DNA of 63,200 bases, filler included, from Craspedostauros australis (lineage: Eukaryota), in assembly GCA_030167865.1 (NCBI GenBank). It is 6 parts of 6 records of this genome, joined end to end, with 100 filler letters (N's around TTAATTAATTAA, not from the genome) between each part and the next. Parts side by side here need not be neighbours in the genome. Positions count along the whole stretch, not along the records: positions 56,871 to 61,683 come from JALAGF010006195.1; 5 more parts are not named here. The stretch is one strand, 5' to 3'. Below, piece by piece: positions 40,701 to 61,783 of this stretch (position 1 is its first letter; each line of letters begins with the position of its first letter). The notes beneath the pieces are model-generated. The model saw only the letters and a list, made by a program, of their open reading frames with translations. It was not told the DNA's origin and searched no databases. Position numbers and translations under genes: made by a program.

Positions 40701-40744
40701 NNNNNNNNNNNNNNNNNNNNNNNNNNNNNNNNNNNNNNNNNNNN

Positions 40745-41999: not shown

Positions 42000-43651
42000 T
42001 GGAAGAGAATTTGGGCCGTGCGGTCAAAAGCCTCACCATCACCGTCGCTGGTGCCGTCAGAGCCGTATTCCTCACGCACCATCTTGACGGCCCGTGCAAC
42101 TGTGCGCGAACGGTCACGGGAGTAGGCCTCCTTGTACGCCACCAGGACCTTCTTGGCCAGGTCAGGCTTCTCCTCGCGAAGCTCTGCGAACGCGAGGTCG
42201 CGCGCCCACGGCAAGCATGTCCCAGAACGGTGCCCTGGCCGGCGGCAGGCCTTGCAGAACGCGTCCTTGTCTGGCTGGTAGAAAGCCGACTTCTTGCGCT
42301 CCTCACAACGGCCGCCACCTCGGTTGTCACGCGTGAAGGACCGAGTCTGCGCGCGATGCTCAACAGGCTTGACAGGCGCAGTGGGGTCCCCACGGATGGT
42401 GCGGGCCAAAGTTGACACGTGGAGATGAGGTGGAACTCGACGAGCGCCAGGCACCAGTTCAAGAGACGTCAGGTGGTGCTCGACAGGCACGCCTTGCGAG
42501 CGGAGCCCTTCAAGGAACCGACGAGTGAGTTCCACGTCAGTGACCACACGCTGGTGTACAACTCCCTCTGTCTGTTGGAACTCGAGGAGAGCGTTGGCAT
42601 ACTGGACAACGTCGTTGAAGTCACTGTACACAGGCGCTTGGCTCACAGTGTTCTTGACCCGCATGTACGCATCCAACAGGAGCTGGTGTAAGAACACGAA
42701 GGACAATAGCCAATGAGGCAAGATCCTGAAGCTCCCAGCGTAGAACATGCTGAGGGATGGATGACCCAGGTCGAGCACACCGGATTGCTGTAGCTTCTGC
42801 TCAAGCAACCGACCAGCGCGGAAGACTTGTGCTCTCGAAGCGCCTTTCGGAAAGACCAAGCAGGCGGGGTTGAAAGCTGAGAGAGGGCAGATGTGCGCCT
42901 CAACGTTGGCAGCCTCACTCTGGAGCTGCGTGTACCACTTGAGGACGCTGGTGGGATCGTCCACCTCAAGCTTGACCTCCCAGCGCTGCCAGAAGCCAAG
43001 CGAATCGCGGTCAGGCTCGATGGGCGACTGCACAGCAACGTAGTGAAAGTGCTGGAGCACAGCGGGGTTGTTCTTCGCCATGGAGTAGGAAAGGCCTGAA
43101 TTGGTGATGTAGTCAGCGGCCTCCGCGCCGTCTTCGCCAACCTGGAACGGACTGTTGGTGGTACCGGTGCCAGCCTGGAAGTCGTGAGCAGGGGCAATAC
43201 CCTGATCAACACGCGGGGTTTCCACGCTGGGAGCGTCACCCGTAGGGCCAGGGTGTTCAGCGACACCTTCGCTTGCGCCTGTGCGCGCAGTAGGCTTGCC
43301 GTCAGCAACGTCCGCGGTATCCGGAGGCAAAGCGGGGTCTTTGGGAACGGGGGCAGCGAACTTGCGAATGTCGCTGCGCGTGAGAGTGGGAAACCACTTG
43401 TCGTAGTCTGGATGCGCCAAGGCGTAGGCGCGGAGCCGCTGCATCCCGAAACGCCTGGTGGATGACCCCTGCTTCCAAGCATCAAAGAGCTGGTCGAAGT
43501 AAGCATCGGGGGCGTCAAGGAAATCGTAGAATTCACCGTCAGTGTTGACCCGTGTCTGTTTCGAGAAATCATCGAGCCATTGCCAGTTGAATCGGTCAAA
43601 AAGGGCACGAGTGACCTTTAAGTGATCGACTTGCTCAGTGGTGTCAGCCAT
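41972..43651 (-). CDS. gag: Gag of Copia element A (559 aa)
   Basis: Intact ORF with CX2CX4HX4C near the C-terminus; homologous to 56938-58035. Confidence 0.85.
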   Translation of the reverse strand: MADTTEQVDHLKVTRALFDRFNWQWLDDFSKQTRVNTDGEFYDFLDAPDAYFDQLFDAWKQGSSTRRFGMQRLRAYALAHPDYDKWFPTLTRSDIRKFAAPVPKDPALPPDTADVADGKPTARTGASEGVAEHPGPTGDAPSVETPRVDQGIAPAHDFQAGTGTTNSPFQVGEDGAEAADYITNSGLSYSMAKNNPAVLQHFHYVAVQSPIEPDRDSLGFWQRWEVKLEVDDPTSVLKWYTQLQSEAANVEAHICPLSAFNPACLVFPKGASRAQVFRAGRLLEQKLQQSGVLDLGHPSLSMFYAGSFRILPHWLLSFVFLHQLLLDAYMRVKNTVSQAPVYSDFNDVVQYANALLEFQQTEGVVHQRVVTDVELTRRFLEGLRSQGVPVEHHLTSLELVPGARRVPPHLHVSTLARTIRGDPTAPVKPVEHRAQTRSFTRDNRGGGRCEERKKSAFYQPDKDAFCKACRRPGHRSGTCLPWARDLAFAELREEKPDLAKKVLVAYKEAYSRDRSRTVARAVKMVREEYGSDGTSDGDGEAFDRTAQILFQDFVLAGQE

Positions 43652-44133
43652 GATGTCAACGAAAAAAGAAAAGAGAGAACGCGGAAAGCGATCGAAGCGA
43701 GGAGCGAAGAGAGGAACGAGGAGCTGCGCCTGGATGGGTATTTCCNNNNNNNNNNNNNNNNNNNNNNNNNNNNNNNNNNNNNNNNNNNNNNNNNNCCCCT
43801 GCTTCCAAGCATCAAAGAGCTGGTCGAAGTAAGCATCGGGGGCGTCAAGGAAATCGTAGAATTCACCGTCAGTGTTGACCCGTGTCTGTTTCGAGAAATC
43901 ATCGAGCCATTGCCAGTTGAATCGGTCAAAAAGGGCACGAGTGACCTTTAAGTGATCGACTTGNNNNNNNNNNNNNNNNNNNNNNNNNNNNNAAAAAAGA
44001 AAAGAGAGAACGCGGAAAGCGATCGAAGCGAGGAGCGAAGAGAGGAACGAGGAGCTGCGCCTGGATGGGTATTTCCTATTGCAGAGAGGGTGACGAAGTT
44101 TATGTGGATGGTCTTCCTGTGGAAGCGTATTTC

Positions 44134-44142
44134 CTCATAACC
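44134..44142 (-). promoter_or_regulatory. Primer-binding site GGTTATGAG, complementary to the initiator tRNA-Met anticodon stem-loop
   Basis: Directly follows the LTR end ...TCATCACA on the minus strand; pairs with CUCAUAACC of tRNA-iMet. Confidence 0.75.
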
Positions 44143-44282
44143 TGTGATGATTGGGAGACGATACGGATGTGTTGTGTGTGTGTGATGATGTGAGATTATT
44201 ATGGATACTCTGATTGTCTCCGCAGAGGCTGTGAACATGGGATTTGCTGCTGCTCCGTCTGTCATCCGACCGTGTACCAACA
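44143..44282 (-). repeat. 5' LTR of element A (~140 bp)
   Basis: Starts TGTTGG and ends CA next to the PBS; its start coincides with the end of homology to the element-B LTR. No second copy in the window. Confidence 0.65.
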
Positions 44283-44594
44283 GAACCTGATGATTGATCG
44301 AATCTGATGGAATATTCACAACATATTTCATTCCTGTAGACCTGGTAGTTAAGGTCTCAATGTGACGTCACGTGTGATGGATACTGTGGTATCCGCTGGT
44401 ATCGCGGTATCCTGTCATCGTAATATCGCAGTATCCTCGTGGTATCTCGGTGGTATCGCTGTGACGTCATAGTTTTGGGTCGTGATTCCGCCACCAAATA
44501 TTCTGGATGATGGCGCGCAAGTGTGACTGATNNNNNNNNNNNNNNNNNNNNNNNNNNNNNNNNNNNNNNNNNNNNNNNNNNACACATTCCGACA
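44283..44594 (-). repeat. 3' LTR of element B (gap inside; last ~4 nt displaced by element A)
   Basis: Begins TGTCGGAATGTGT right after the PPT; reverse-complement homologue of 46875-47157. Confidence 0.85.
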
Positions 44595-46874
44595 CCCTTC
44601 CTGTAGGCGTCAGTCATTCGCTGCTGTCGCCAGTGTGTAGGTAGGACTTCTCGTGCTCGCGCTGTGGCTCCGACTTGATGTTCTTCGTGAAGCCGTCGCT
44701 TCGGTTGTTCTCTGATTTGACGAAGATGATTTCGATCAGCTTGTCATTCACCATGTTGCGGACGTANNNNNNNNNNNNNNNNNNNNNNNNNNNNNNNNNN
44801 NNNNNNNNNNNNNNNNNNNNNNNNNNNNNNNNNNNNNNNNNNNNNNNNNNNNNNNNNNNNGGAGTCTTCACTGGCACTCCCACACTCTCCAGGAGTTGCA
44901 TCACAAAGAAGATCTCCTTCGCCGCTTCGGATAGCGCGATGTACTCTGCCTCTGATGAACTGAGTGTCACTGCCTTCTGTTCCTTGGATCGCCAGAGGAT
45001 AGGGACTTGACAGAGGTAGAGAATGAATCCGCCAACACTGATGCAAGTGTCCTTGTCTCCGGCGTATTCGCTGTCGCAGAACATCTCCATGTTCCATGCG
45101 CTGCTGTCTGTCATGACGGGATGGATCTTCAGACCGTAGTGCTTCGTGTCGATGACGTATTTGATGATACGCCGCATCTCCTTGGTTGCAGCCTTGGTCG
45201 GTCCGTCAAGTACCTTCGTCAGCTCTCTGACAGGGTTGGCGATGTCGGGACGCGAATGCTTGATTAAGAATAGCAGCATTCCCACTCCCTTGCGATAGTC
45301 AGCATGCTCTGCTGCATCTACCTTCTGTAATCTGTTCTCTTCGGATGGGCGAACGATGCTCTGGCTTGGCGTCCCTGGCGTCGCGTAGCGCTGCATCTTC
45401 TCCACCTTCCCACCGAATTCAGTGATTAGGTTTCGGATCAGATGTGGCTGGCGTAGGACGGCTCTGGTCTTGTCTGCGTTTATCTGGATGTTGCAGCTGA
45501 GGTAGTCACCCAAACCCTTCTCGATGGTGACCTTGAACTTGCTCTTCTGGATGTCGTTGATGAATTGTTCGAGTGCCTTCTGATGTCCGGAGGAGAAGCA
45601 GTCGTCAACGTAGATTGCCACAATCACTGTTCCATACTTCGTCTTGCAATGGAAAAGGCACGGATCTGCCGCGCTCTGGTCGAATCGCATTCCCTTCAGC
45701 ATTGATACCAGCATCTTGTACCATTGGCGTGCGCTCTGGACCAGCCCGTAGATTGACTTGTGTAGCAGCAGCGCCTCATCAGGTGTGCTGTCCATTCCGT
45801 TTGGACAATTCATGTACACCTCTTCTTCGAGATTGCCGTACAAGAATGCAGTGACAACTTCCACGAGTGTGTAGTCCATCTTCTGCAGTAGCATGATCAC
45901 CATCATCACTTGGTACGTAACATCATGGATGACAGGCAAGTGGTGCTCTTGGTAGTCCACTCCTGCAACCTGTGAGTAGCCGCATGCTACCAGGCGCGCT
46001 CGATAGGTTCCATTGCACTTTAATTTAAACACCCATTTGCACTTGCAGCATCTGCGGTCCCTCGGGATCGATGAGCGCTTGATCTTGCTGTAGACGGATC
46101 GAGCATCCATCGAGCTGAACTCCTTTGCGATGGCGCCTCTGTAAGCCCTTTTCGTGTGTTGCATTTGGATGGTTGAATGCTTGGTTGAAGGTTGATGGCT
46201 CGATGTGTGTCGATGTCTCTCCTGTCTCATCTTGGGTGGCTGCGCAGATCTCCATCTCAAAATCGTCGGTGCTGATTGCGTTGTTTCCAAATAGAGCATC
46301 AGTGATTGCATTGATGGTGTCTGGTGGAGGAGAGTCGCCGTCTTCGTCGTCCGTAGCTTCATTGTTCTCTTCATTCTCGTCGGTAGTGTTGCCGTTGGTT
46401 TCGTCGTCATTTTTGGTCTCCTCGCTGCTGTCCTGATCGTCGTCTGTGTTTCTCTTGTTGTTGTCGGTATCGCTTCCCCTATTGAAGACAGATAGGTTGG
46501 TTGTGAATCTCTTGCTCTCATCCTTCGCCGTCTTCCCTGGCTTGTTGTAGTTTGCAAGGTTGCGCAATTCGCTCTTTCCTTTCGTGTTGGATGGCAGCGA
46601 TGTACGGGATTTCGCATCCACCTTTGAGTTGTGTCTGCTTTGCTCGATGCATCGTTGGCGTCGTTTGCTGCGAGTGGTATCGCGCTTGCTTGGCCGTCGT
46701 GGAGGGTTGGCTGTTGCGACACGGTTCGTTATTGGATCATCATGCGCTTCGTGCGAACGTTTGCGCGAAGTGGGTGGAGTGCGAAGGATGCTTGGCGGGG
46801 CACTCGGTGGGGCAACATCTTCAATGTTGGTCAGCGTGTCATCATTGGCAGGGATCGTGTCAACGTCCTCTTCA
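44283..46874 (-). mobile_element. Degenerate Ty1/Copia element B, 3' half (linker, RT, RNase H, PPT, 3' LTR)
   Basis: CKWVFKLK, ARLVACGYSQ, KSIYGLVQSARQW, IYVDDC, SRPDIA, FCDSEYAGD, LSSSEAEY, DGFTK; frameshift near 46150; PPT AGGAAGGG at 44602-44595. Confidence 0.92.
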
Positions 46875-47157
46875 TGTCGGAATGTGTGTACTCAGATGTG
46901 TATGCACCAGTCACACTTGCGTGCCAGCAGGAATATTTGTTGGTGCAATCACGACCCAAAATTGATGACATCCCAATGATACCACCACGATACCACAAGG
47001 ACACTACGATACTACAATGCCAGGATACCGCGATACCAGCGGATACCACAGTATCCACCACATGTGATGTCATCTCAAGGCCTTACCTACCAGGTCTACA
47101 GAGAATGAAATATGTTTTAAGTAATCCATCAGATTCCATCAATCATCAGATTCAACA
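46875..47157 (+). repeat. LTR of the element-B family in inverted orientation (283 bp)
   Basis: TGTCGGAATGTGTG...CAGATTCAACA; shares CAGTCACACTTGCG, AATCACGACCCAAAA, GATACCGCGATACCAGCGGATACCACAGTATCCA and CTACCAGGTCTACAG with the 44283-44594 copy. Confidence 0.88.
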
Positions 47158-47407
47158 AAACCTGAGAACGGAACAACAATGAGACAACGAGAGAAAGACG
47201 ACAACGTTGACGATCAAGTCAACATCAACGAGCAACATGAGAGCAATATGCATGGAGGTGCAAGAGTATTGCACCAGCAATGAGAGCAAGGAAGAGATGG
47301 ATCAAGAGAGCATCTTGATCATCTCATTCCACATGCACGCTCATCAACAATCAGTAACAACTACAGTAACAAGTAACAGAAACACTTACAGCCAAAGAGT
47401 GTTACAA

Positions 47408-49474
47408 CTACTGATTCTCTGTGCGCGGAGCCTTCCACCAGCGCCAACAACAGAACCAATTGCGTTGGATGTTGTTGTTGTTGGTGTTGTTGTTGTTACT
47501 TTGGATGTCAATTTTGTTGTTGTTGCGTTGGATGTCGATTTTGTTGTTGTTGCTTTGGATGTTGGTGTCATTGTTGTTGCTTTGGATGTTGATTTTGTTG
47601 TTGTTGCTTTGGATGTTGGTGTTGTTGTTGTTGTGTTGGATGTTGGTATTGTTGTTGTTGCTTTGGATGTCGACTTTGTTGTTGTTGCTTTGGATGTTGA
47701 TTTCGTTGTTGTTGCTTTGGATGTCAATTTTGTTGTTGTTGAGTTGGATGTCAATTTCGTTGTTGTTACTTTGGATGTCGACTTTGTTGTTGTTGCTTTG
47801 GATGTTGATTTTGTTGTTGTTGCTTTGGATGTTGATTTTGTTGTTGTTGCTTTGGATATTGGTGTCATTGTTGTTGCTTTGGATGTCAATTTTGTTGTTG
47901 TTGCTTTGGATGTTGGTGTTGTTGTTGTTGCTTTGGATGTCGACTTTGTTGTTGTTGCGTTGGATGTTGATTTTGTTGTTGTTGCTTTGGATGTCGATGT
48001 TGTTGTTGTTGCGTTGGATGTCATTATTGGCATTGGCTGATGCAACGACGTACTCCACACACTCCAGGTAGCCATTGGAGTGTGCCTCATGAAGGGGAGT
48101 GGAACCAGAGTTGTTTTTGCAGTTGATGTCAGCCCTGCATGATTCGATGAGGTACTTCACACACTCCAGCTTCCCGTTCATGCATGCGAAATGAAGGGGA
48201 GTGTCATCATCGTTGTCTTTGCAGTTGATGTCAGCCCTGCATGATTCGATGAGGTACTTCACACACTCCAGCTGGCCGTTGGAGCATGCGTCATGAAGGG
48301 GAGTGGAACCATTGTCGTCCTTGCAGTTGATGTCAGCCCTGCATGATTCGATGAGGTACTTCACACACTCCAGCTGGCCGGTACCGCATGCCACATGAAG
48401 GGGAGTGGGACCATTGCTGTCTTTGCAGTTGATGTCAGCCCTGCATGATTCGATGAGGTACTTCACACACTCCAGCTGGCCGTTCATGCATGCCACATGA
48501 AGGGGAGTCCAACCACAGTAGTTTTCGCAGTTGATGTCAGCCCTGCATGAGTTGATGAGGTACTTCGCACACTCCAGCTGGCCATCGAAGCATGCGTAAT
48601 GAAGGGGAGTGTTTCCATTGTGGCTTTTGTAGTTGACGTCAGCCCCGCATGATTCGATGAGGTACTTCACACACTCGAGGCGGTTGTTGAAGCATGCCCA
48701 ATGAAGGGGAGTCCAGCCATTGTTGTCTTTGCAGTTGGCGTCAGCCTCACATGATTCAATGAGGTACTTCACACACTCCAGTTCGCCATGCATGCATGCC
48801 CGATGAAGGGGAGTGTTACCATAGTTGTCTTTGCAGTTGATGTCGGCCTCACATGAATCGATGAGGTACTGCACACACTCCAGCTCGCCTTCCATACATG
48901 CCCAATGAAGGGGGGTCCAGCCATTGTTGTCTTTGCAGCTGGAGTCGGCCTCACCTGATTCGATGAGGTACTTCACACACTTCAGGTGGCCGTCATGGCA
49001 TGCCCGATGAAGGGGGGTCCAACCACTGTTGTTTTTGCAGTTGGCGTCGGCCTCACATGATTCGATGAGGTACTTCACACACTCCACTTGGACGTTAAAG
49101 CATGCCCAATGAAGGGGAGTCCAACCATAGTCGTCTTTGCAGTTGGCGTCGGCCTCATATGATTCGATGAGGTACTTCACACACTCCAGGCATCCGTTGA
49201 GGCAATTGTTGTAGCATGTGCCTTGGCATGCACAAACAAGGGGAGTGGCACCACGGTTGTTTTTGTAGTTGATGTTTGCCCCACACGATTCGATGAGGTA
49301 CTTCACACACTCCAGGTGGCCGTACGTGCATGCTTTATGAAGGGGAGTGGTACCACTCGCCTCGAAAGCCTTGTCGACATCAACTCCTTCATTCTGCTTC
49401 TTCCATTCCTTCAACATCGACAAGTCACCTGACCCAGCAGCAATAATGAGGTGTTTGCCTGTAACATTTGGCAT
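47408..49474 (-). CDS. Ankyrin-repeat protein (13 TPL-containing repeats, mostly 34 aa) with a C-terminal Asn-rich 9-aa repeat tail
   Basis: Consensus CKDxxGxTPLHxACxxGxLECVKYLIESCxADxN; intact 688-aa ORF. Confidence 0.92.
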   Translation of the reverse strand: MPNVTGKHLIIAAGSGDLSMLKEWKKQNEGVDVDKAFEASGTTPLHKACTYGHLECVKYLIESCGANINYKNNRGATPLVCACQGTCYNNCLNGCLECVKYLIESYEADANCKDDYGWTPLHWACFNVQVECVKYLIESCEADANCKNNSGWTPLHRACHDGHLKCVKYLIESGEADSSCKDNNGWTPLHWACMEGELECVQYLIDSCEADINCKDNYGNTPLHRACMHGELECVKYLIESCEADANCKDNNGWTPLHWACFNNRLECVKYLIESCGADVNYKSHNGNTPLHYACFDGQLECAKYLINSCRADINCENYCGWTPLHVACMNGQLECVKYLIESCRADINCKDSNGPTPLHVACGTGQLECVKYLIESCRADINCKDDNGSTPLHDACSNGQLECVKYLIESCRADINCKDNDDDTPLHFACMNGKLECVKYLIESCRADINCKNNSGSTPLHEAHSNGYLECVEYVVASANANNDIQRNNNNIDIQSNNNKINIQRNNNKVDIQSNNNNTNIQSNNNKIDIQSNNNDTNIQSNNNKINIQSNNNKINIQSNNNKVDIQSNNNEIDIQLNNNKIDIQSNNNEINIQSNNNKVDIQSNNNNTNIQHNNNNTNIQSNNNKINIQSNNNDTNIQSNNNKIDIQRNNNKIDIQSNNNNTNNNNIQRNWFCCWRWWKAPRTENQ
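47465..48025 (-). repeat. Coding minisatellite, 27-bp unit, about 20 copies ([IVT][DN]IQSNNN[KNDE])
   Basis: Plus-strand unit ~TTGTTGTTGCTTTGGATGTYRAYTTTG repeated in tandem. Confidence 0.95.
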
Positions 49475-49649
49475 TTTGAGAGGTTGCAGGACGATTGGCG
49501 CTGGATTGGCTGTCGAGGAGGTGTGTTGTCTGAGCTATCTGTGGCAGAGATATCGATCGTTTGTCTTCAATAACTTGTTTAATTATGAGTACCATGCAAT
49601 GAGTGGCAATTCGATGTCTGTTGCTGATGTGCTCGAGTATGGGGTTGAG

Positions 49650-49784
49650 TGGTCCTCTCCTTCCCTTGATCGCATGGTCCTCTCCTTCCCTTGATCGCAT
49701 GTTCCTCTCCTTCCCTTGATCGCATGTTCCTCTCCTTCCCTTGATCGCATGGTTCTCTCCTTCTCTTGGTCGCATGGTCCTCTC
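49650..49784. repeat. 25-bp tandem repeat, ~5.4 copies (TGKTCCTCTCCTTCCCTTGATCGCA)
   Basis: Read directly; no spacers; about 175 bp upstream of the ankyrin start codon. Confidence 0.95.
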
Positions 49785-51368
49785 TGGTTCTGGTTTGTGC
49801 GACATCGTTGAAATGAGAGTCTTCGACTGATGCGACTACGATGAAGATCATCGAAAAGATCCATGACTGTTTGGACATCTGTCGAAGCACAACGAATCGG
49901 AGAGATCATTCATCGCGACATGCAGATGATTTGAGTGTTTTCATTGGTCTGAACGATCTTGTGGCTTGAGTCTGCCTCCGACAACTCGGCTCCAGCCACA
50001 ACCAACATCACATCAATTCGAAGCCAGCAACGCGAAAGTCTGCGGAGACAGAGAGAGAGAGAGGGAGATGTCCTTGCCACCACCACCATGTGCGCCATGT
50101 GCACCATGGCCCACACTTGCTTGCGTCATCATGGCATCTGTAAGACCGCTGGCCCTCGTCCGCGTACCATTGCATGCACCAACTTGAGGTGTGAAGCAAT
50201 GCCTCGAACAACAATGAAGCCACTGATGCGACTGCGTTTGTTGGTTGCCTTTGGTGGTTGTGATCCACCTCATTTGGATTTGGCTGGTTGCCATCCCACC
50301 GCATTGCAATCATCACCATCCGTGCGGGCAACAAAAATCCTCAACATCAAACCAACACCACATTGCGTATTGGGATGGGTTGGCACCTTCAACAGTCAAC
50401 ATGCGGAGCGATACTGTGCCACCTGCACTGTTCCTGTTGCATGGACCGCCAACATACAATACCATGCGCGTTCTGTCCAGAGGCACCAGCGCCGCTGTGT
50501 TGGCTCGTGGCTTCCAGAGCATTGATGCTCAACCAAGGCGATTGACAGGAACATCCACCTCACGAACAAAGTCGGGAGCACCACGAAGGAGGACATGTGG
50601 GTGTACGGTGCTTGTGGGCCATGAATTGCTGGCTGTGTGTGTTGGAAATCCGGGGTTATGGTAGTAGACTAATCTGTTATCAATCTGTACCGTTTTAGAA
50701 CTGTGAGAACAAACTCCTTGACTCTTCAATTCCAATTCAGCAGCAAGTGAAATGCATAGCACCTCTCCATGATCATGCACTTGTTCATTGTTGCTTTCAT
50801 CTGCTTCACCATCTTGCTTTCATGCTCTCTTCTGTAGATTCATCGTGCATCATCATTGTCGAGATGTACATGTGAGTATATGTCGAGATATACGTGTATA
50901 TGTGCATCATTCACCCGTTATTCTCTCATACGCACTTGGACGGTATAACTACATTCGTGTCAATAGTATAATGTGATTCGTCAGAATTACAGCGGAAATG
51001 GAACACACGAAAATGAGCAAGATTTCTGGAGGAAATTTGCAATCGACGATTTCTGAGAGAATNNNNNNNNNNNNNNNNNNNNNNNNNNNNNNNNNNNNNN
51101 NNNNNNNNNNNNNNNNNNNNNNNNNNNNNNNNNNNNNNATATCATCTGACAGACTGCTGCATCACCAATGGAACATGACATCTGGAGAGCAGAAGGACGC
51201 CTACTGACGTTGACAGGATGTCATCGTGTCGCCACGTCGACATCTGTCTCCAAGTCAGAGCAGGAGGCGAAGATCCGATGACCGAAGAGGATCAGCATCA
51301 TGGATACTGAAGGTGAACTTCAAATGGTAAGTACTCATGGAGTAGGAGCCAGTACTGAACGAACGGAG

Positions 51369-54300
51369 TGTCGAATACGGAGTACGCATCGAACACGGAG
51401 TATCGTGTAACACGAATACACAACGTTGAGAGAGAGAGAGAGAGAATACAGAGAGGAGCGAGAGAGCATCTCGCGTGCCGACTCATAGTCGGTGACCGAA
51501 TCTACGAAACAGATTGAAGCGCCAAGAGCATCGGGCAAGACAACTGGTGTACACCGAGAGGATTGGAGTAACCAACTAATGAAATAGCAAACAGACGACT
51601 ATCAACCAACACCATCTTCCACGATCGCAGGTTACCGTGAGCGGAACTTGCCAACACGTTTATAAACGATAGATCAGGGCAAGCCCGCGGATCAGATCGT
51701 GCGAGGAAGACGAACATCATTCAGGAGCAGCAGGCTGAATGAGCAAGGAAGAGGAATTGAAAGGCATCCCTCTGTCCAATCCGGCTATCAAGCAAGAAGA
51801 AGGTGCAAGCGAGACTCGACTTCAAGAACAGAAGGAAGCAGCCGCGGCTACTGTCCTATCAGGCGCAGAGGCAAGCGCAATCGACGAGACCGAAGAAGAA
51901 CGGTCTGCAAGACTACATCGCGAGGAGAAGAGCATTCTCAAGGCGAGCAAGAAAGAGGAGACTGGTGCGACGGAGAGCATTCGCACAGCCAAACAGAGTG
52001 GGAAAAGTGAGACACCACCAGGAGGAGAATTTGTGACGAAAACAATCTCCGCGCAACTACGAGCGAAAATCGAAGAATCGACAACACAGAAACAGACGGA
52101 AATCAAGGGCGCGAGCGCACCAACGACGAAACAACGAACCAATATGGCGACATCAGCCAACGTGAACAAGCGACGCATCAAGGCGCCGATGTTCAGCGGT
52201 GAACAAGAAGACTACAGCGCATGAGAGTCCCCAGCGAAGGCATACGCTCGTGCGCAGAAGACGAGAGACATGATGTTGGGCAAGACCAAGGTGCCAACAG
52301 TGAGCGAGATCGCGGCCGCCGCCGGCAATGCCAAAGAAGCGATGGAGGAGATCTACAAACTGGGATGCGATTGCTTCAGCGATCTGATCCTCATGATAGA
52401 TGCAGAGAAAGGAAAAGGCAAGCAAGCCATCCAGTACATCAACCAGTGCGTCTCCGACGACTACCCCGAAGGAGATCCACACACAGCGTGGAACGTTCTC
52501 GCGGAGAAGTTCCGTCCATCCGACGCGGCGACGAAGATCAAACTCAAGCGCCAATTCAACAACAAAAAGATGAAGAGAGACTCGGACCCCGATATCTACA
52601 TCACGCGACTCGAGGGTCTACGATCGCGTCTCCACGATGTCAAGTACGAGATCACAGACGAGGAAATGATCATGCAAATCCTCAGCACGGTGAGCGTGGA
52701 ATACAGAACCCACATCGTGAACTTCCAACATCAACTCACGTTTAATCCGGAACTGGTCACCATCAACACGGTGAGAGGAGTACTCCGTACAGCATACACC
52801 ACTCATCAAGGAGGCAAGGCATACATCGACGACTTCCAAGACAGTAACACGAAGAGCAACGACACCGGCTTCACGAGCACCGGTAACTTCAAGGGAACCT
52901 GTCACAACTGTGGTGTGTATGGTCACAGATCCGCCGATTTCCCAGAACGCAAGAAATCGAACAACAAGAAAAACAACAACAACAACAACAACAAGATGAA
53001 CGGAAAGCGCAACAACAACCGCAACAAAGGAAGCGGCTTCAATGGGAAGTGCAACTACTGTGGCATCTTCGGACACCGCGAGGCGGAGTGCCGAAAGAAG
53101 AAGTTCAACAAGAAGAAGAAGGCCGACGAACAGGCCAACACAGCAACACAAGGACACGACAAGAGCGGGCACGAGATGGTACTCTCAGCAAAGGACATGC
53201 CGCTCTGCATGTTGGTGTCTGACAACTACATTGAAGACTCCTTCTTCGATAACTTCGAGTGCGTCGGGAGTGACGACGAAGTGCAGGACGATGAGATCGT
53301 CCCAGAGTGGCTCAGCGAGGAGCCAATCATCCACGAGGTGGATCCAAGACGCGAAGTGAGCCACGAATGCTGCTTCAACGCGCACGACTTGATTGGTCCA
53401 TACGGCGACGGAGCCGAGATGGGCAACGAGGCCAACGATAGTGACATCGAGGAGGCCATGAGTGAAGAGGCCGACGACGAGATCAACGACAATGATAGAG
53501 GCCAAGACGAAACGAATGGCGGCGCGGCGCCGCCTCCTCCAGCGGCGGGGAACAACAGATCGGGCATCTTCAACGAGGATGACAGCGACGAATCCGAGGA
53601 TGGCAATCATCCAGACGACAGCTTCAATCCAAACGAGCGTGTCGTCTACCCAGGGAACATCGACTTCCCACCAATCGAGGATCCCAACAGGTCCAACTAC
53701 CTCCATCGTCATGACACCGTCCCATATGCAACAGAGACAGCATTGGTAATCCAGAAGCAACTCATCTTCGATGCAGTGATGGAAGCAGGAGTGAGCCTGT
53801 TCCCAGGAATCGAACGAGGAGTACTCAGACCGATATGGGTCAACATGATGGGATCCATCCTATCCGAGAACTTCAGATCGATCGAAGAGATTCTGACCAA
53901 TTCGGTTGTGATCAATCGCATACTGGAAGCAGCCGAGACAGAGACGATCCCAGAGACNGATCTTCATTACATCCTTGGAGGATGTATGCGCGTACTCTTA
54001 CGCGAACGACCACGGGTCCATCCATACGATCCAGCCACAGGATCTCATCGGAACAGTACGATTCCATCGGACTTCGCAGAACTACCAAGCGATGACAACA
54101 TGGACGACGAGGAACATCATAATCCATACAACAAAGATGGAGTTCACGAAGATGACGATGACGGCAGCTTCGACGACGAGATAGCTGCAGCAGCTGTGGA
54201 GCAGCTCCACGAGCTGAGCACCAGATACTAGGACAAGGTCAACAAGGACACCTGGCTCGCCGATAGCGGAGCTTCGTGTCACATCGTCAACTCGGACGCC

Positions 54301-56770
54301 GCTCTCTTCAACGTGCGGCACATCAAGTCCTTCGTCCAAGTGGGAGACAGCACGAAGCTGGACTCTCCCAAAGTGGGATCCATTCACTTGAAGGTCAAGC
54401 AACAAGACAACACTGGCCACATCATCCGGCTCGATGATGTGAAGTACACACCGAAAATGGCGGTGAACCTTTTCTCCACGAACAAGGCTCTGTACAACGG
54501 TTACCAGCTTGGTAACAACGGCATTCTGATGGACATCATCAACGGATCCAGAACAAAGATCGTGTTCGATCGAGTCTTCCCTACATCCAACGGATTCATC
54601 ACGGGAGTGCAGATGCATCCCATCATGCCAACGGACGACGACAAGGCTTGCACAGCCATCATCAAGAATCCGTCGAAGGAGATCAGCGCGACGAACTTAC
54701 ATCGAATGCTTGGCCACGCACCGCTCGAGGCCATGAAGCGGGCAGCCGCCCAATACGGATGGAAGATTATCGGCGAGATGCCGGTATGTCGCGACTGCGC
54801 AGTTGCAAATGCGAGAGTGAAGAACATTCCGAAGGCAACAATCCCGAGAGCAACTCGCCACGGCGAACGTCTCTTCATTGACATTAGTTACACTAAACAC
54901 ATAAGCTTCGGAGATAAACGCTACTGGACCCTGATCGTGGACGACTGCACAGATCACTGCTGGAGTTTCTTTCTCAAGAACAAGAGTGATCAACCAGGAT
55001 ACATCAAACGATTCATCCAGACGATCAAGTCACAGACTGGTGACCACCAGATCATCTTCCGAGGTGACAACAGCGGAGAGAACAAATCCACGGAGGATAT
55101 TCTCATCGATGCAGGACTCAACGTGAAATTCGAATACACGGCATCGAACACGCCGCAACAGAACGGAAGAGTGGAACGCAAGTTCGCGTACCTCTATACC
55201 AAGATCCGCTCCATGCTCAATGGAGCACAGCTCAACGAAGAGTATAGGCATGGCCTGTGGGCAGCAGCTGCGAGCACTGCCACCGCCATCGCCAACATCA
55301 CTGTAGCGAAGAATCAGAAGGAGTCACCACATCGCCAATTCTTCGGCAACGATCCACCACATGCGGATGCACTCCGCACATTTGGAGAGGTAGGTGTTGT
55401 GAAGACTACTTATGGCGGGATCACCTCCAAGCTCAAGAACAGAGGAGAAGAGATGGTGTTCATCGGATATGCACACCAACATGCATCAGGAGTGTATAAC
55501 ATGTACAGACCATCGACCAAATCACTGGTCTGTTCTTGCGACATCAAATGGCTAAATCAATCATATGGACAGTTTCGTGGCTGGGCGCCAGCATCAAACA
55601 TATCCAATAAAGCAGGAACAATAGACGCAGACGGCTTCATAACCATCGGACGGAAGGGAGCAATGCCAAGGACGGCAATGCGTCAAGCATCAGAAACGAA
55701 GAGAGTATCTTTCGCTAACAACAACAGGTACTACATCCTATCAGACAGCGACGATGAGGATGATGAGGACGATGGAGTAGTGACTCAACTAATCCATAAC
55801 AACGAGAAAGATCGGAGCGAATCCAATCATGAGGATGACGAGATCCCACCATCCGGCGACGAAGCCGACAATGACACAGGTGTCACTCCTCCGAACACAC
55901 CAGCGAGGTCTACACATGACACACCATCCAGACCTCCACCAAACAAACCAAGCAAGCATGACATAGCTAGAAAGGAGAGAATCCGACGTCACGAAGCACG
56001 AGGCAGGAAGGGAGAAGCTAATCCCAAGTCAACTGTAGGGAAGAGTATTCCCAGAGCTCTGCGCGAGCTCGCAGACTTCAACGAACGAGGTCGAAAGGAG
56101 GAAGGTTATGAGAGTGAGTCATCATCCAACAAAGATAGTGACAAACTCAGCAACGAGATAACCAACGAATCCAACAACGAAACTACAGATGACGAGGAAG
56201 TCATAGACGAAGAAGAAGAGATCGAGATTACCCACCACAGTACAACTGGACTATAAGGAATGAACGCAATCATCACTGAGACACCAGCGATCGACATTGG
56301 ACTGTCGATGCAGGACGAGAACAAGGAACCAGAGAAGCACATCGAACCAACAACATTCGATGGAGCCTTCAATCACCCAGATCCATCCATCGAAAGGGAT
56401 ATCGAGCAGCCATCAAAAAGGAGTTCGACTCCATGGATACACGCAAGGTGTACAGCAAGATCAAACGAGACGCCATCCCACGCGCCGCAGATGCTGCAAG
56501 TGCAAATGGGTCTTCAAGTTGAAACGCGATGGCACACATCGAGCGCGGCTCGTTGCATGTGGCTATTCACAAGTCGCAGGAGTAGACTTCCAAGAGCATT
56601 ACTCACCCGTCATCCATGACGTGACCTATCGGGTCATGATGGTGATCATGCTAATCAAGAAGATGGACTGCGCACTCGTCGATGTTGTAACGGCATTCCT
56701 ACATGGAGACCTTGACGAGGAGATCTACATGAACTGTCCCAACGGGATGGATCATCAACCAGACGAAGCC
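51369..56770 (+). mobile_element. Defective Ty1/Copia element C (same lineage as B): gag, protease, integrase, start of RT; LTR bounds uncertain
   Basis: Gag W..L.EKF..DPDIYITRLE with two knuckles (one Cys-to-Phe); WLADSGASCH; LHRMLGH..CRDC; FIDIS..RGDNSGE..PQQNGRVER; CKWVFKLKRDG..ARLVACGYSQ. Lesions: frameshift ~52220, TAG 54229, TAA 56254, frameshifts ~56390-56490. Candidate LTR TGTCG..CCAACA 51369-51656. Confidence 0.9.
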
Positions 56771-56814
56771 NNNNNNNNNNNNNNNNNNNNNNNNNNNNNN
56801 NNNNNNNNNNNNNN

Positions 56815-56826
56815 TTAATTAATTAA
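56815..56826. other. Artificial scaffold-joining spacer TTAATTAATTAA
   Basis: Same 12-mer inside N runs. Confidence 0.95.
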
Positions 56827-56870
56827 NNNNNNNNNNNNNNNNNNNNNNNNNNNNNNNNNNNNNNNNNNNN

Positions 56871-59800
56871 TTTCACGACTCCTCGTCTCCCGGCAGAGGA
56901 CTTCGACTACGTCACTGACTCTGGAGTTGACTACTCTGTGGCCAACGCCAGCCCCGCGTTCCGGCGACACCGTACCTACCAGGTCCCGCCCGCTCTCGAG
57001 CGTCTGGACTACGGTGTTGGTCAGGCCTGGGACAAGTGGCGCCTGCCCCTCAAGGATGACTCGCCCACTGCGATCTTCAACTGGTATGGCCAGTTCCAGG
57101 CTGCTGCTGCACGTGCGGACTTGCACTCTTGCCCGCTGAGTTCGTTCCAGCCGTCCTCTTCCGTCATTCCTCGCAATGCCCACGGTCACCGTGTCTTTGC
57201 CATGAATGACCAGCTGGTGGTGAAGCTGCAGGCCGATGGTGTCATCAACCTGGAGCATGCCGCGCTTCGCCTGAAGTACACCAGCAGCATCGGCATCATG
57301 CCGCACCGGCTTTCCGCGTACGTCTTCATTCATACACTGCTCTCCGGCGCGTATGATGCCGTCCAGTCGCAGGTCCACAAGGCTCCAGCTTTTCAAGGGT
57401 CCGTTGCGACGTACGCTGAACAGCTGCTCAGCTTCCAGCTTGTGGAGGGCCTCGTGTTTCGCCGACACATCTCCCAGCTGGAGCTCACGCGCCACTTCCT
57501 TGAAGAACTTCGTGGTCATGGGTACGAACTGGGGCACTTCCATACTGCCGTCCGTGGCGTTGCCGTGCCCAAGGACCTTCCCATCAATCTGCGCGTGGAG
57601 CAGCTTGGGCAGGAAATTACGGATCTTCCCCAGCAGCCTGCTCGAGGTGTCGCGCATCGTGTCAACACATGCAGTCAAGGACGCAGTGGTGGTGGTGGCC
57701 GAGGCCAACGTCCCGAGAGGCGCCAGCACGCCTTTTACAAGCCAGTGCCCGGTGCCTTCTGTGAGGCCTGCTGCAACATGGGTCACACCAAGGACACGTG
57801 CAAGACTTTTGGGCGCCATGTGCACATGAACGAGTACGCTGCATCGCATTCGGAGTATGCTGACGCCATGCGTGACAAGTTCCGCGGGCACTTCACCAAG
57901 CAGACCTTCACGGCCAACGCTCGGGCCATCCAGCGCTACAGCGGGGATGAACATGAGTCCATTGCCAACCTCGTGGTGTCTGATGAAGTGCTCGAATCCG
58001 TTGACCAGGATTTTTGGTCTGCCGGCCAGGAGTAAGCGAGCTCTCTGGTGAACGGCCATCTTTCAACAATCGTGACAGCGGGAAACCAGCAGGTCATCAC
58101 GTCGATGAGGTTTCCGTGCTTGCTCTTCCTGCTCCCTCCGCCATCCAGCCTCATAAGCTTATGGGATATGCTGTGGTCAGGGCCTGCCGTGTTCACGCCG
58201 CCCGTACTGATGGATCCGGCATTCGGGCCTGGAATCCTTATGGTGGTGTGGGTCAATGCGACATCGGTGCCAATGTGAGCGCGACTCCGTACAAGGAAGT
58301 CCTGAGGGATTACCAACCTTTCTCCTCACCTCTCATGCTGGCGGCAGCTGATGCTCTCGCTGAGTCCATGGTATGCCCGGGTGAAGGCTTCCTGGACGTT
58401 CCCACATGCGAGGGGTCGGCTATCTCAGTCCGGACTGCGCTTTGCCCCAACCTGGCTGAGACACTCATCTCGCCACAGTCCATCGTGCGACAGAGTGACA
58501 ACACATTCCAGCACTTCACATTTGCATCCACCCTACAAGGCGCCACGCTCATGTTCCATGGTGCAAGCGGTGACTGCTCTGCCTCTATGACTCAGTCCAA
58601 TGGGTTGTACTTCTTCAACGGCGACTCCACACGGTCACCCATGGCGTTCGCCATTCAAACTTCGTCGCCGGCCTTGCAAGCGGAGCTATGGCACCTGCGC
58701 CTGGGACACCCCGGCATGTCGCAGTTGGAGAAGTTGCCTGCGCATGTCACTGGCGTCCCTGGCAAACTACGGTCCAGCGCGCACCCGTTGCGACACTGCA
58801 CGACGTGCAGCCAGGCTCACCGCCAGAAGGCCGCTTGCGGACCCAACGTGGACACTGTCGAACCACATCCGGGCGCTCGGTTCCATGCAGACTTCGGTTT
58901 CATGCGTGCCACCAACGAGGCGTACGGTGCTGCAAAGCCGCGCGGCCGCGATGCCAATCGCCGTGTTGTCCTATCCCTTGAAGGCTTCACGTCATACCTC
59001 CTCATCACGGATGCGTACACGCGATATACGTGGGTGTTTCCAACGAAGGACAGGTCGCCTCCAGTTGAGATATTCTCCAAACTTCTGGGTGATTTTGGCC
59101 GACGTTCGGGTCATCGCGCGGTGCGTGTCGATACAGGCAGGGAGCTTGCTCGATCCGGAGCTTTCCAAGTGGCCGTCTGCGATGCTGGGTACAATCTCGA
59201 GCCCACTGGTGCTGGTTGCTCCTGGATGAATGGGAAGGTGGAGCGGCTGAACCGCACTTTTGGCGTCATGACGAGGGCCCTACTGTATTCCGCGGGTCTC
59301 AAGCCGCAGTTCTGGGCCCTTGCGCTCGTGCATTCGGTCTACCTGAAGAACCGGTTGTGGCATGCGTCCATCTCCAAGACTCCCTACGAGCTCCAACATG
59401 GGGTCAAGCCGGATCTCGGGCACCTACGTGTTTTTGGGTCTCGTGTTACTGTCAGGAAGCCAGGACATCCACCTGCCAAGCTTGACGTTCACACGTACAA
59501 TGGAATCTTCGTGGGTCACACGGCGACACCGACTCTCCACAAATACTACGACCTTGATTCTGGCCGCATCAAAACAGCTGGCAACATCGTCTTCGACGAG
59601 GTTCACTTCACGTCCAGCAGTCGGCCTCCAGGACCACAACTCCTGTTCGAACTGGGATTCCGTGACCCTCGAGGTGATGCAACACTGATCCCTACGAAGG
59701 ACGGCGCACTCAAGGGTGACAATGCGGATGCAGGGCGTACACCCGTTGAGTCCTGCGTTGCGTGTGGTGATTCGGAGTTACACGCAGCCGCTGCCACGTG

Positions 59801-61683
59801 CTCATCCACACCTCATCGTTTCGTGCGGTCACTGGAGATGACGAGTGAGCCTTTCGGTTTTCCGTTCGCGCAGGACATTGAGGTGAATGGATCCGATCCA
59901 TGTGCTGGGTTGGTGCTGGTGCCCGACGATGCTCGAGGGCGACTGCAGCTGCAAACATGCAAGCCTGGCACTCCGGCCGCTCGCATTCCCCGGTGGCGAT
60001 CGCGTCTTCGGTCTGCACATCTGCTNNNNNNNNNNNNNNNNNNNNNNNNNNNNNNNNNNNNNNNNNNNNNNNNNNACGTGTGTTTGGGTCTCGTGTCACT
60101 GTCCGGAAGCCAGGGCATCCGCCTGCCAAGCTTGACGTTCACACGTACAATGGCATCTTTGTGGGACACACGGCGACACCGACTCTCCACAAATACTACG
60201 ACCTTGATTCTAGCCGCATCAAAACAGCTGGCAACATCGTCTTTGACGAGGTTCACTTCACGTCCAGCAATCGGCCTCCAGGACCACAACTCCTGTTCGA
60301 ACTGGGATTCCGTGACCCTCGAGGTGATNNNNNNNNNNNNNNNNNNNNNNNNNNNNNNNNNNNNNNNNNNNNNNNNNNCACTTCACGTCCAGCAATCGGC
60401 CTCCAGGACCACAACTCCTGTTCGAACTGGGATTCCGTGACCCTCGAGGTGATGCAGCACTGGTCCCTACGAAGGACGGCGCACTCAAGGGTGACAATGC
60501 GGATGCAGGGCGTACACCCGTTGAGTCCTGCGTTGCGTGTGGTGATTCGGAGTTACACGCCGCCGCTGCCACGTGCTCGTCCACACCTCATCGTTTCGTG
60601 CGGTCGCTGGAGATGACAAGTGAACCTTTCGGTTTTCCGTTCGCGCAGGACATTGAGGTGAATGGATCCGATCCATGTGCTGGGTTGGTGCTGGTGCCCG
60701 ACGATGCTCGAGGGCGACTGCAGCTGCAAACNTGCAAGCCTGGCACTCCGGCCGCTCGCATTCCCCGGTGGCGATCGCGTCTTCGGTCTGCACATCTGCT
60801 TACCCTGGATGGCGACGACGTGTTGCGCGGTGATGATGTCGTCCGCATCGTTTCAAACGCGCGGCAGCGTCAGACGAATCCAATCGTCGCCATCTTCGCT
60901 TTTGATGAGGCGCGCAATGCTCTCTCCCAACAAGGTGTTCCGCAGCTCTACTTCGACCAGCTTCGACATGTGAAGGACGTCATCCGGCAGATATCGCCAC
61001 GCGCTCGCGCCGTTGCTGCTGCACCCAAACTCACACGGCGCAAGTTGCTGTTGGGCGATGACTGGGATGAGTGGCAAGCTGCGGAGTTCAAGCAGATGGA
61101 GCAATACCACCACCAAGGGATGTTCGGTGATCCAGTGGAGCCTCCGTCTGGCGCAGCTGTGTTCAACTGGGTCTGGGTGTATGTTGTGAAAACCCACGAG
61201 AACAATCGCAAGAAGGCCCGCGCGGTGTGTGATGGTTCCACCCGAGGAGGCAACGTCCGTGTATTTGGTCACACGTATGCTGCCACGCCCGATCTCACCG
61301 AATTCCGCATTCTTGTGGCCATCGCCGCTGTCCAGCGCCTACTCATCTTTGGAGCTGATGTTGCCAATGCATTTGCTGAAGCTCCAGCCAGCGCCCAGCG
61401 ATACTACATGAAGGTGGACGATCAGTTCCGTTCGTGGTGGGAACACAAACATGATGCTACCATTCCGCGTGGCCATGTTGTGCCTGTCCTCAAGAACCTC
61501 CAAGGTCACCCTGAGGCGCCTTGGCAGTGGAGCATTCATGTCAATGGAATCATGCGCCGCATGGGCCTGACGTCAACCACCCACGCTCCATGTCTCTACA
61601 CTGGGGTCGTTCAGAGCGAGCGCGTCTACATTTTGCGGCAGGTCGACGATTTCGCAGTGGCCACCGCCCGACAGAGCACCTAC
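56871..61683 (+). mobile_element. Ty1/Copia (CoDi-like) element D, internal part: gag (to 58035), then pol in the -1 frame (protease, integrase, PDZ-like segment, RT)
   Basis: Knuckle CEACCNMGHTKDTC; CDIGAN; LWHLRLGH..CTTC; FHADFGF..RVDTGREL..NGKVER; HLRVFGS; WVYVVK..KARAVCDG; ADVANAF; LQGHPEA; LRQVDDF. Segments 60076-60328 and 60379-60800 repeat 59426-60025 across gaps (assembly artefact). Confidence 0.93.
58008..58056 (+). promoter_or_regulatory. Putative -1 programmed ribosomal frameshift signal
   Basis: G_GAT_TTT (58008-58014), spacer TGGTCT, hairpin GCCG-GCCAG-GAGT-AAGCGA-GCTC-T-CTGGT-GAA-CGGC (58021-58056). Confidence 0.75.
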
Positions 61684-61727
61684 NNNNNNNNNNNNNNNNN
61701 NNNNNNNNNNNNNNNNNNNNNNNNNNN

Positions 61728-61739
61728 TTAATTAATTAA
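61728..61739. other. Artificial scaffold-joining spacer TTAATTAATTAA
   Basis: Same 12-mer inside N runs. Confidence 0.95.
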
Positions 61740-61783
61740 NNNNNNNNNNNNNNNNNNNNNNNNNNNNNNNNNNNNNNNNNNNN

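Follow-up and report, generated by a model that had tools for sequence, protein, structure and literature searches.

A predicted, conserved G_GAU_UUU -1 frameshift cassette at the gag/pol junction of diatom Copia retrotransposons

Two Copia retrotransposons of the diatom Craspedostauros australis, referred to here as elements D and A, carry a slippery heptamer, a 6-nt spacer and a predicted bulged hairpin at the junction of gag and pol. In the lineage to which both belong, Gag-Pol is probably produced by a conserved, hairpin-aided G_GAU_UUU -1 frameshift, the slippage itself being a prediction. According to the proposed mechanism, most ribosomes would terminate at the gag stop codon and release Gag. 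A minority would pause on GAU_UUU with tRNA-Asp and tRNA-Phe, held by the hairpin located 6 nt downstream, then slip one base back to GGA_UUU and go on in the pol frame. In D, the expected product is a Gag-Pol fusion of the form ..QDF-LVCRPGV.. with protease, integrase and reverse transcriptase. We infer the slippage, its efficiency and the stimulating role of the hairpin from the sequence.

Results

Both elements are located in a window of 63,200 nucleotides (the whole stretch of DNA that was analysed, filler included). A 4.8-kb contig carries D alone; it is flanked by the contig linkers N44-TTAATTAATTAA-N44 at 56771-56870 and 61684-61783. Because D sits on this separate contig between linkers, its gag lacks the 5' end. 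The gag ORF of D (56871-58035, plus strand), cut at the 5' side by the contig end and homologous to 54 Gag-like proteins, encodes a nucleocapsid-type zinc knuckle CX2CX4HX4C (57760-57801, plus strand), whose Cys/His columns are invariant in the Gag alignment, and a C-terminus ..VDQDFWSAGQE followed by the TAA stop codon (58033-58035, plus strand). The pol ORF on the same strand extends from 58005 to the first assembly gap at 60025 and encodes the protease, with the D-I-G-A motif at 58260-58271, and the integrase. Its continuation, which encodes the reverse transcriptase (RVT_2), lies at 60379-61683 (plus strand), after gap-linked duplicated pieces, and reaches the contig end; the seeming break of pol near 60.0-60.4 kb is formed by duplicated pieces flanking two 50-N gaps. 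The gag codons of D start at positions 3n+1 and the pol codons at 3n. [quoted passage not shown]

Element A lies on the minus strand. Its gag ORF (41972-43651) begins with a Met start and ends with ..LFQDFVLAGQE and TAG (41974-41972). The pol ORF (40746-42023), which is cut by the contig end, is open from 42023, and thus the downstream ORF is again at -1 and overlaps gag. The BLAST frames of Gag and Pol were 1 and 3 in D, and -2 and -1 in A. The CX2CX4HX4C knuckle is present in the Gag of both elements, and the order of Pfam domains in Pol is gag_pre-integrs, SH3_retrovirus and RVT_2. D and A are Ty1/Copia (Pseudoviridae-type) LTR retrotransposons, with the Gag knuckle followed by protease, integrase and reverse transcriptase (RVT_2). 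Both are incomplete in the assembly and both lack the 3' end; their LTRs are not visible because the contigs end inside both elements. Another element of the same window, C (52225-56253), has a stop-codon gag/pol layout.

The slippery heptamer of D, G_GAT_TTT (58008-58014, plus strand), is in the gag phase (CAG GAT TTT) and supplies the Asp-Phe codons that are kept at the Gag ends of relatives. It is followed by the spacer TGGTCT (58015-58020) and by a 36-nt bulged hairpin (58021-58056), the predicted frameshift stimulator, which holds the gag stop codon; TAA occupies the top of the 5' arm and the loop. These results confirm the in-phase heptamer, the 6-nt spacer and the 36-nt bulged hairpin with the gag stop that had been reported for D from inspection. 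[quoted passage not shown] It ranked first among 3119 windows of 36 nt by stability (mean -7.1, sd 2.7). Among 200 shuffled sequences (mean -10.7, z -2.4) 4 were equally stable; measured against shuffles, with z at about -2.3 to -2.4, the hairpin stands out only moderately. Rfam 15, with its curated frameshift-element models, gave no matches at E <=1 in the region 57800-58300. A pseudoknot between the loop and the downstream sequence was considered by eye; its pairing is not preserved between A and D. G_GAT_TTT by itself is not rare, with 6 occurrences in the window, both strands counted; what sets the junction heptamer apart is its position, phase and conservation, not mere occurrence.

The same geometry was found in A, in agreement with the earlier note, despite the strong divergence of the two elements, which share 37% identity in Gag and 48% in the Pol N-terminus. 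The whole cassette of A spans 41999-41951 on the minus strand and comprises an identical G_GAT_TTT in the gag phase (41993-41999), a spacer of the same 6-nt length and different sequence, GTGCTT (41987-41992), and directly after it a predicted bulged hairpin (41951-41986). The A hairpin has a predicted stability of -15.8 kcal/mol and, as in D, a 3'-side internal loop of 3 nt; it belongs to the 4 most stable distinct places of 2871 windows. The third codon positions of A and D are 37-39% identical. In about 2.4 kb of codon-aligned coding sequence, only 6 runs of at least 9 nt are identical in A and D. The longest of them (15 nt, 58020-58034) lies at the junction, and a second junction run comprises 10 nt (58005-58014). 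When windows of 10 codons were compared, the junction ranked first in gag, where 24/30 positions matched (mean 13.8, sd 3.8); in pol it shared the first rank with 26/30 (mean 15.8, sd 4.3). The heptamer and the core stem are identical in both elements. Within the 36-nt hairpin A and D differ at 7 positions, 5 of them unpaired and 2 pair-keeping (U-G to U-A and G-C to G-U); the probability of so few of the 7 differences falling at paired positions is P <=0.0105. Because the core stem is invariant between the two sequences, it contains no compensatory change. RNAalifold, applied to two sequences only, proposed another pairing of the lower stem, in which 2 pairs are compensatory. Both frames are coding at the junction (gag ..AGQE; pol ..CRPGV..L.GER), and therefore part of the nucleotide conservation could come from double coding. 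The nucleotide evidence for the cassette comes from two sequences only, D and A.

The Gag ends of relatives extend the comparison at the protein level. A profile search of 1.84 billion representative proteins with Gag gave 54 matches, derived from metagenome records and one marine eukaryote transcriptome set. Asp-Phe was present within the last 10 residues in 21 of these 54 proteins. The CCHC knuckle was intact in 31/54, and 20 of these 31 end with Asp-Phe plus 0-7 residues. The overall frequency of Asp-Phe is 0.0038, and none of 21 Pol proteins used as a control had such an end. All 21 proteins have one of E, Q, A, S, T and P directly before Asp-Phe, so that a G-ending codon is possible in each of them; residues without a G-ending codon were expected in 34% and observed in 0/21 (P = 1.4e-4). 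This G-compatible residue fits the G that would be required at heptamer position 1. Together with the sequence of the two junctions, the 20/31 Asp-Phe ends and the G-compatible residue support the idea, put forward in the earlier note, of a virus-like -1 shift for Gag-Pol in this Copia lineage. The Gag of the nearest relatives ends with DFxxAG(Q/H).., and in D and A the AGQ codons make up the hairpin's 5' arm. Of the 21 Asp-Phe relatives, 13 reach their stop after 0-1 codons, and in such proteins a nearby stop codon may act as the stimulator instead of a hairpin.

What is conserved in the Asp-Phe end could also be a motif of the protein and not a signal in the nucleotide sequence. The end and the hairpin might be kept for reasons other than recoding, for instance because Gag needs a peptide motif at its C-terminus or a site for protease cleavage, with the shift taking place at another site or the copies being dead. 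Such an explanation draws on the fact that the relatives are known by their protein ends alone, that the invariant stem offers no covariation, and that both copies in the window are incomplete. However, the 31-nt overlap of D contains no second shift-prone heptamer, and both copies, whose silent sites are near saturation, have the same frame relation. Among the relatives, between 0 and 7 residues follow Asp-Phe, a variation unlike that of a fixed C-terminal peptide motif. Moreover, all 9 members of the P0031 cluster have the same length of 575 aa and end with ..PADF; as the members keep their ends, these ends belong to intact families and not to decayed copies. Retention for purposes other than recoding is thus judged very improbable compared with the proposed frameshift.

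Not all relatives share the end. Eleven of the 31 knuckle-bearing proteins lack Asp-Phe there, one having Asn-Phe and several ..SDE. An arrangement of gag and pol in one frame, which the earlier note had named as contrary evidence, was found in only one of the 54 matches, the distant P0075 (E 2.5e-4), in which Gag continues into a protease motif, DTGAS. For P0006, whose N-terminus is MNGF.., a Gly-Phe reading of the site in the pol frame was considered and rejected, since its ATG would put TGA in the gag frame. The protein search with the Pol N-terminal stretch (region 1-85) gave no matches, the search with a broad Gag alignment gave P0044 as the only match, and a narrower Gag alignment had no matches in prokaryote genome contigs. 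Scans of viral contigs with the cassette pattern, with Pol and with the alignments of Pol and of Gag found no relative. The metagenome scan was filled by bacterial integrase look-alikes and contained one true relative (L001, 46% identical), which begins downstream of the junction and carries a frame break of its own. The cassette pattern had 9 matches in prokaryote MAGs; none of them encodes Gag or Pol, and they are therefore regarded as chance matches.

Gag and pol could instead be joined at the RNA level, either by splicing, for which the conserved GGAGTA at the gag terminator looks like a donor site, or by slippage of the polymerase along the T run. The putative donor reads GA|GTAAGC in D; in A the sequence is GA|GTAGAC, its GT aligning with that of D. 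In D, 27 GT..AG pairs would give the correct frame change. Splicing is also used for gag expression by copia, BARE and EVD, according to the accessible literature. However, the D acceptors that fit the donor at 58032 (58079 and 58181) are not AG at the aligned positions of A. With 5 nt in D and 4 nt in A, the T run is short for slippage of the polymerase during transcription. The top Gag match, P0027, ends with ..EDFCNAGQE, and its ORF was called on a 5817-nt transcript of the marine eukaryote transcriptome set. Since the ORF was called on a transcript, the gag stop is present in that RNA, which speaks against joining before translation. The open pol frame from the heptamer to the protease motif was also considered as an argument excluding splicing; it is weak evidence, because 862 of 3026 off-frame windows of 84 codons (28.5%) are open in these G+C-rich elements. 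Among the alternatives considered, joining at the RNA level is the least probable.

Separate translation of Pol, through internal initiation or termination-reinitiation at the gag stop, has also to be weighed. The hairpin would then serve this process, or RNA packaging or dimerisation. An in-frame Met is present before the protease motif at residue 53 in D and residue 34 in A, but the two do not align with each other. A conserved stem at the gag end is reported for plant sireviruses, likewise Copia elements, whose mode of pol expression is described as unsettled in the accessible part of a review. Separate translation leaves unexplained, however, both the conserved in-phase Asp-Phe heptamer and the G-compatible residue in 21/21 relatives. 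LTR elements also usually depend on a Gag-Pol fusion for taking Pol into their particles. An independently translated Pol is accordingly considered unlikely, and the -1 frameshift at G_GAU_UUU is the preferred explanation for D and A.

Discussion

The presented data fit a G_GAU_UUU -1 site that is conserved across a Copia clade whose hosts are marine microbial eukaryotes. A broader proposal is that the whole widespread marine clade has used this shift since its origin, with the help of a stop 0-1 codons behind the site in most families or of the bulged hairpin 6 nt behind it in the D/A sub-clade; the chances for and against this are about even. Copia elements are textbook cases of every way of balancing Gag and Pol except -1 slippage, i.e., a single ORF, splicing, a +1 shift and a stop codon. 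If true, the -1 signal conserved in this Copia clade, which is frequent in marine plankton, would close that gap, and under the whole-clade proposal the clade would be the first among Copia elements to have a conserved -1 signal defined. Annotation would gain a rule, according to which gag and pol are joined where Gag ends with Asp-Phe and pol lies at -1, and for G_GAU_UUU and the part played by a nearby stop there would be a natural test case in a eukaryotic alga instead of a plant virus. The general view of how frameshifting works is unchanged by the finding. A literature search found no paper on a -1 signal in Copia elements of diatoms or other algae.

Among known elements, the CoDi elements of diatoms (Maumus et al., 2009, PMC2806351) are, like D and A, Copia elements of marine algae; unlike in D and A, no shift site or structure is described for them in the accessible part of that paper. 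The usual Ty1/Copia strategies listed in the earlier note (one ORF, splicing, +1 shift or readthrough) match the reviewed cases as far as the accessible sources go: Ty1-Ty4 use a +1 shift, Ty5 has a single ORF, Tca2 uses a stop codon, and copia, BARE and EVD rely on splicing. These strategies share with the proposal for D and A the goal of an excess of Gag over Pol. Since gag and pol of D and A are in different frames, however, those that involve no frame change cannot give Gag-Pol here. Ty1, Ty2 and Ty4 of yeast, members of the same superfamily, resemble D and A in that gag and pol lie in different overlapping frames and Gag-Pol arises by recoding. They differ from the mechanism proposed here in both direction and signal type, as theirs is a +1 shift that involves no tandem -1 slippage.

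The arrangement of D and A is closer to that of retroviruses and many Ty3/Gypsy and BEL elements, in which pol also overlaps the gag end at -1, with an in-phase heptamer, a short spacer and a downstream structure. The purpose of -1 shifting in those elements, a low ratio of Gag-Pol to Gag, is the same as that proposed here. A 2003 survey, as cited in the accessible text of PMC5009743, found pol at -1 in 28/51 animal LTR elements. Unlike retroviruses, Gypsy and BEL elements, D and A are Ty1/Copia, with the order protease-integrase-reverse transcriptase, and their heptamer is the non-classical G_GAU_UUU, not X_XXY_YYZ.

The heptamer itself is known from RNA viruses, as the earlier note had stated. 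G_GAU_UUU is given as a typical -1 slippery motif in the accessible part of PMC11050907. The accessible text of PMC5009743 reports that dianthoviruses, umbraviruses, mesoniviruses and insect flaviviruses have shift sites of the G_GA type, and that G_GAU_UUU occurs in umbraviruses, including pea enation mosaic virus 2, which needs a stop one codon behind the site. In this virus the same heptamer is followed by UGG, as in D, and the stop shortly behind the site resembles that of the 13/21 Asp-Phe relatives. Barley yellow dwarf virus, described in the same source, has a bulged stem-loop 6 nt after the site, like D and A, and similar structures are predicted in dianthoviruses and umbraviruses. The viral sites differ from those of D and A in that they serve the expression of a polymerase in RNA viruses; their stimulator pairs with a distant 3' element, the 3' ends of D and A being missing. 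The likeness to viral G_GA-type sites implies no common descent; if the whole-clade proposal is correct, it would represent convergence between the recoding signals of retrotransposons and plant RNA viruses.

The gag/pol junction of elements D and A

The junctions of the two Ty1/Copia copies compared here, elements D and A, contain the same cassette. The gag codons of D begin at 3n+1 and end ..GTT GAC CAG GAT TTT TGG TCT GCC GGC CAG GAG TAA, the TAA stop lying at 58033-58035 on the plus strand. The pol frame is closed by a TGA at 58002-58004 and is open from 58005; since gag continues to 58035, pol is in the -1 frame and overlaps the end of gag, as an earlier note had proposed, with an overlap of 31 nt. 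The remaining features described in that note were also found in D: the heptamer G_GAT_TTT at 58008-58014 (plus strand) in gag phase, a 6-nt spacer, and a 36-nt bulged hairpin at 58021-58056 (plus strand). The predicted fold has 13 bp, one bulged U, a 3-nt internal loop and a stability of -17.0 kcal/mol, with the gag stop codon at the top of its 5' arm. In element A, on the minus strand, the heptamer occupies 41999-41993, and it is also followed by a 6-nt spacer, unlike that of D in sequence, and by the same predicted hairpin (41986-41951, -15.8 kcal/mol). The gag stop of A, TAG, is placed equivalently to that of D.

The simplest reading of this arrangement would be -1 programmed frameshifting on G_GAU_UUU in the D/A Copia lineage. 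The tRNA-Asp would re-pair from GAU to GGA and the tRNA-Phe from UUU to UUU, and the predicted hairpin 6 nt downstream would hold the ribosome during the slip. Such a tandem -1 slip in D would produce ..Q-D-F-L-V-C-R-P-G-V.., which agrees with the transframe peptide expected in the earlier note.

Conservation and predicted structure of the cassette

The window contains 6 copies of the heptamer; as the sequence alone is common, the case rests on its place and conservation. That pol is open all the way between the site and the protease motif is a weak argument and was dropped: in these G+C-rich elements, 28.5% of off-frame 84-codon windows are likewise open. The strong divergence of element A, claimed earlier, is borne out by identities to D of 37% in Gag and 48% over the first 426 Pol residues. 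At third codon positions the identity is 37-39%, which puts silent sites near saturation between the two elements. Against this background, the 10-codon window at the junction ranks first in gag (24/30 matches; mean 13.8, sd 3.8) and shares first place in pol (26/30; mean 15.8, sd 4.3), and both match the best integrase motif in conservation. Within about 2.4 kb of codon-aligned sequence, the longest run identical in A and D is that of 15 nt at 58020-58034, and the 10-nt run at 58005-58014 is among only 6 runs of at least 9 nt. The conserved GGAGTA is a possible splice donor through which gag and pol might be joined; however, the matching acceptors of D are not AG in A, and splicing is unlikely. 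The T runs are only 4-5 long, which also makes transcriptional slippage at this place unlikely.

The D hairpin is the most stable among 3119 36-nt gag-pol windows (mean -7.1, sd 2.7), and that of A ranks within the best 4 places in 2871 windows; compared with dinucleotide shuffles of the hairpins themselves, they are only moderately unusual (z -2.4 in D and -2.3 in A). The two hairpins differ at 7 positions, of which 5 fall in the loop, bulge or internal loop and 2 preserve pairing. The probability of so few differences at paired positions is 0.0105 or less, in a test biased towards structure, as the structure was derived from the same two sequences. RNAalifold also predicts an alternative lower stem of 5 pairs between the spacer and the 3' flank of the hairpin (D 58015-58019 with 58054-58058; A 41992-41988 with 41953-41949), in which 2/5 pairs are changed on both sides from D to A (U-A to G-C and G-C to U-A). 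This stem could extend that of the hairpin down to the heptamer, and its two compensatory pairs, coming from two sequences, are only a hint.

C-terminal ends of Gag relatives

Relatives were compared as proteins, using a profile of D and A Gag against 1.84 billion representatives. The search gave 54 matches, 31 with E <= 1e-10 and 8 with E <= 1e-30. In the best ones the alignment extends to the last residues of both profile and protein, which indicates that Gag ends in them where it does in D and A. The best match, P0027, derives from a 5817-nt transcript in a collection of marine eukaryote transcriptomes, so that its RNA contains the gag stop. A full Pol follows Gag in none of the 54 matches; four exceed 700 aa, with the Gag part C-terminal in three. 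The distant match P0075 (E 2.5e-4) continues in one frame for 186 residues beyond the knuckle into a DTGAS protease motif, so single-frame relatives exist further out.

Asp-Phe was found within the last 10 residues of 21/54 matches, and likewise in 20/31 matches with an intact knuckle. Its overall frequency in these proteins is 0.0038, and such an end occurs in 0/21 control Pol-type proteins. It is followed by no residue in 2 matches, by 1 in 11, 4 in 3, 5 in 1, 6 in 2 and 7 in 2. Among the 11 knuckle-bearing matches lacking it, one ends in Asn-Phe and several in ..SDE, and some others are truncated or extended. In an alignment built from matches picked for Asp-Phe ends, Phe does not vary and Asp hardly varies, as is true of the knuckle Cys and His; only counts of the 21/54 and 20/31 type are unbiased. 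The closest relatives end in DFCNAGQE, DFLFAGHQG, DFLFAGHLD, DFINAGQM and DFYKAGQ, and the AGQ codons form the 5' arm of the hairpin in D and A. In the P0031 cluster, 9/9 members are 575 aa long and end in ..PADF; one member of the P0032 cluster has upstream differences but retains SDFP.

A G_GAU_UUU site requires a final G in the codon that precedes Asp. In 21/21 matches this position holds E, Q, A, S, T or P, and in D and A it holds Q. Amino acids without a G-ending codon (D, N, H, Y, F, C, I) precede Asp-Phe in 0/21 relatives, against a share of 34% in the 30 residues upstream (P = 1.4e-4 for their absence). Independent initiation of pol is a less likely reading; it leaves the Asp-Phe ends and the G pattern unexplained. 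The claim that this Copia lineage makes Gag-Pol by a -1 shift fits both the conserved cassette and the Asp-Phe ends, and at sequence level frameshifting appears the better account.

Integrity of the elements and other Copia sequences

Element D (56871-61683, plus strand) fills one 4.8-kb contig, and element A lies on the minus strand in the first part of the 16-kb contig 40745-56770. Pfam places gag_pre-integrs and integrase SH3-like domains in the D ORF 58005-60440 and RVT_2 in 60328-61731; the domain order, protease-integrase-RT, is that of Ty1/Copia. The Gag of both elements has a CX2CX4HX4C knuckle. The pol frame of D seems interrupted near 60.0-60.4 kb; mutation was rejected as the cause, the break being an assembly artefact from duplicated pieces flanking 50-N gaps (60026-60075 and 60329-60378). 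These direct repeats (59426-59678 / 60076-60328 and 59604-59903 / 60379-60678) are 96-97% identical; scaffolding has most likely joined two copies, or two haplotypes, of the element here. The protease active-site motif in D (58260-58271), at the aligned A site and in the protein representatives P0004-P0010 is D-I-G-A or D-L-G-A (QCDIGAN, QCDLGAN) instead of the usual D-S/T-G-A; the more distant P0012 and P0013 have DSGAN. A dUTPase domain (PF00692) lies inside Pol of several relatives at 32-41% identity, namely P0013, P0015, P0016, P0019, P0021 and P0022, and none was found in the assembled parts of D.

Five N44-TTAATTAATTAA-N44 blocks (12389-12488, 14847-14946, 40645-40744, 56771-56870 and 61684-61783) look like six-frame-stop linkers joining concatenated contigs, so that sequences on either side of a block, such as elements C and D, are not real neighbours. 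Element C (52225-56253, plus strand) is a different Copia element, with Retrotran_gag_2 and CCHC in Gag and Pol_BBD and integrase SH3-like domains in Pol. Its Gag and Pol share a frame, with a single TAG between them (54229-54231; ..AGA TAC TAG GAC AAG..) about 10 codons ahead of the L-A-D-S-G-A-S protease motif, which would be either a layout for readthrough or the result of one mutation. A Copia reverse-transcriptase fragment just upstream of element A (44617-46728, minus strand; RVT_2 E 1e-36) shows only 23-24% identity to the Pol relatives of D and A; it has no gag and hence no junction to compare. The sole true Pol relative found in metagenome contigs, L001 (1963 nt, 46% identical), is broken in frame from query residue 395 to 398 and is therefore probably a decayed copy.

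Comparison with known systems

No Rfam family matches the cassette region 57800-58300 at E <= 1, and the full-text literature search brought up no description of a -1 signal in Copia elements of algae. The strategies described in parts of the literature for the Copia superfamily are a +1 shift in Ty1-Ty4, a single ORF in Ty5, a stop codon in Tca2, and splicing in copia, BARE and EVD, all of which differ from the -1 shift proposed for D and A. The 2003 survey by Gao et al. reportedly found mostly single ORFs in the Copia group. Separate frames in Copia elements were noticed earlier by Maumus et al. (PMC2806351), where the main-text parts describe no shift signal and the per-family table lies in the supplement. 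In retroviruses and many Gypsy and BEL elements, -1 gag-pol frameshifting is classical, and sections of Atkins et al. (PMC5009743) name dianthoviruses, umbraviruses, mesoniviruses and insect flaviviruses as having G_GA-type sites. The site of pea enation mosaic virus 2 is G_GAU_UUU_UGG_UAG, where shifting requires the stop that follows one codon later (PMC5009743); the UGG after the heptamer also occurs in element D. The stop follows 0-1 codons behind Asp-Phe in 13/21 relatives with this end, which by analogy suggests that these families may use the same stop-assisted variant. The proposed mechanism is a familiar one; what is new is the lineage and its use of a non-classical heptamer.
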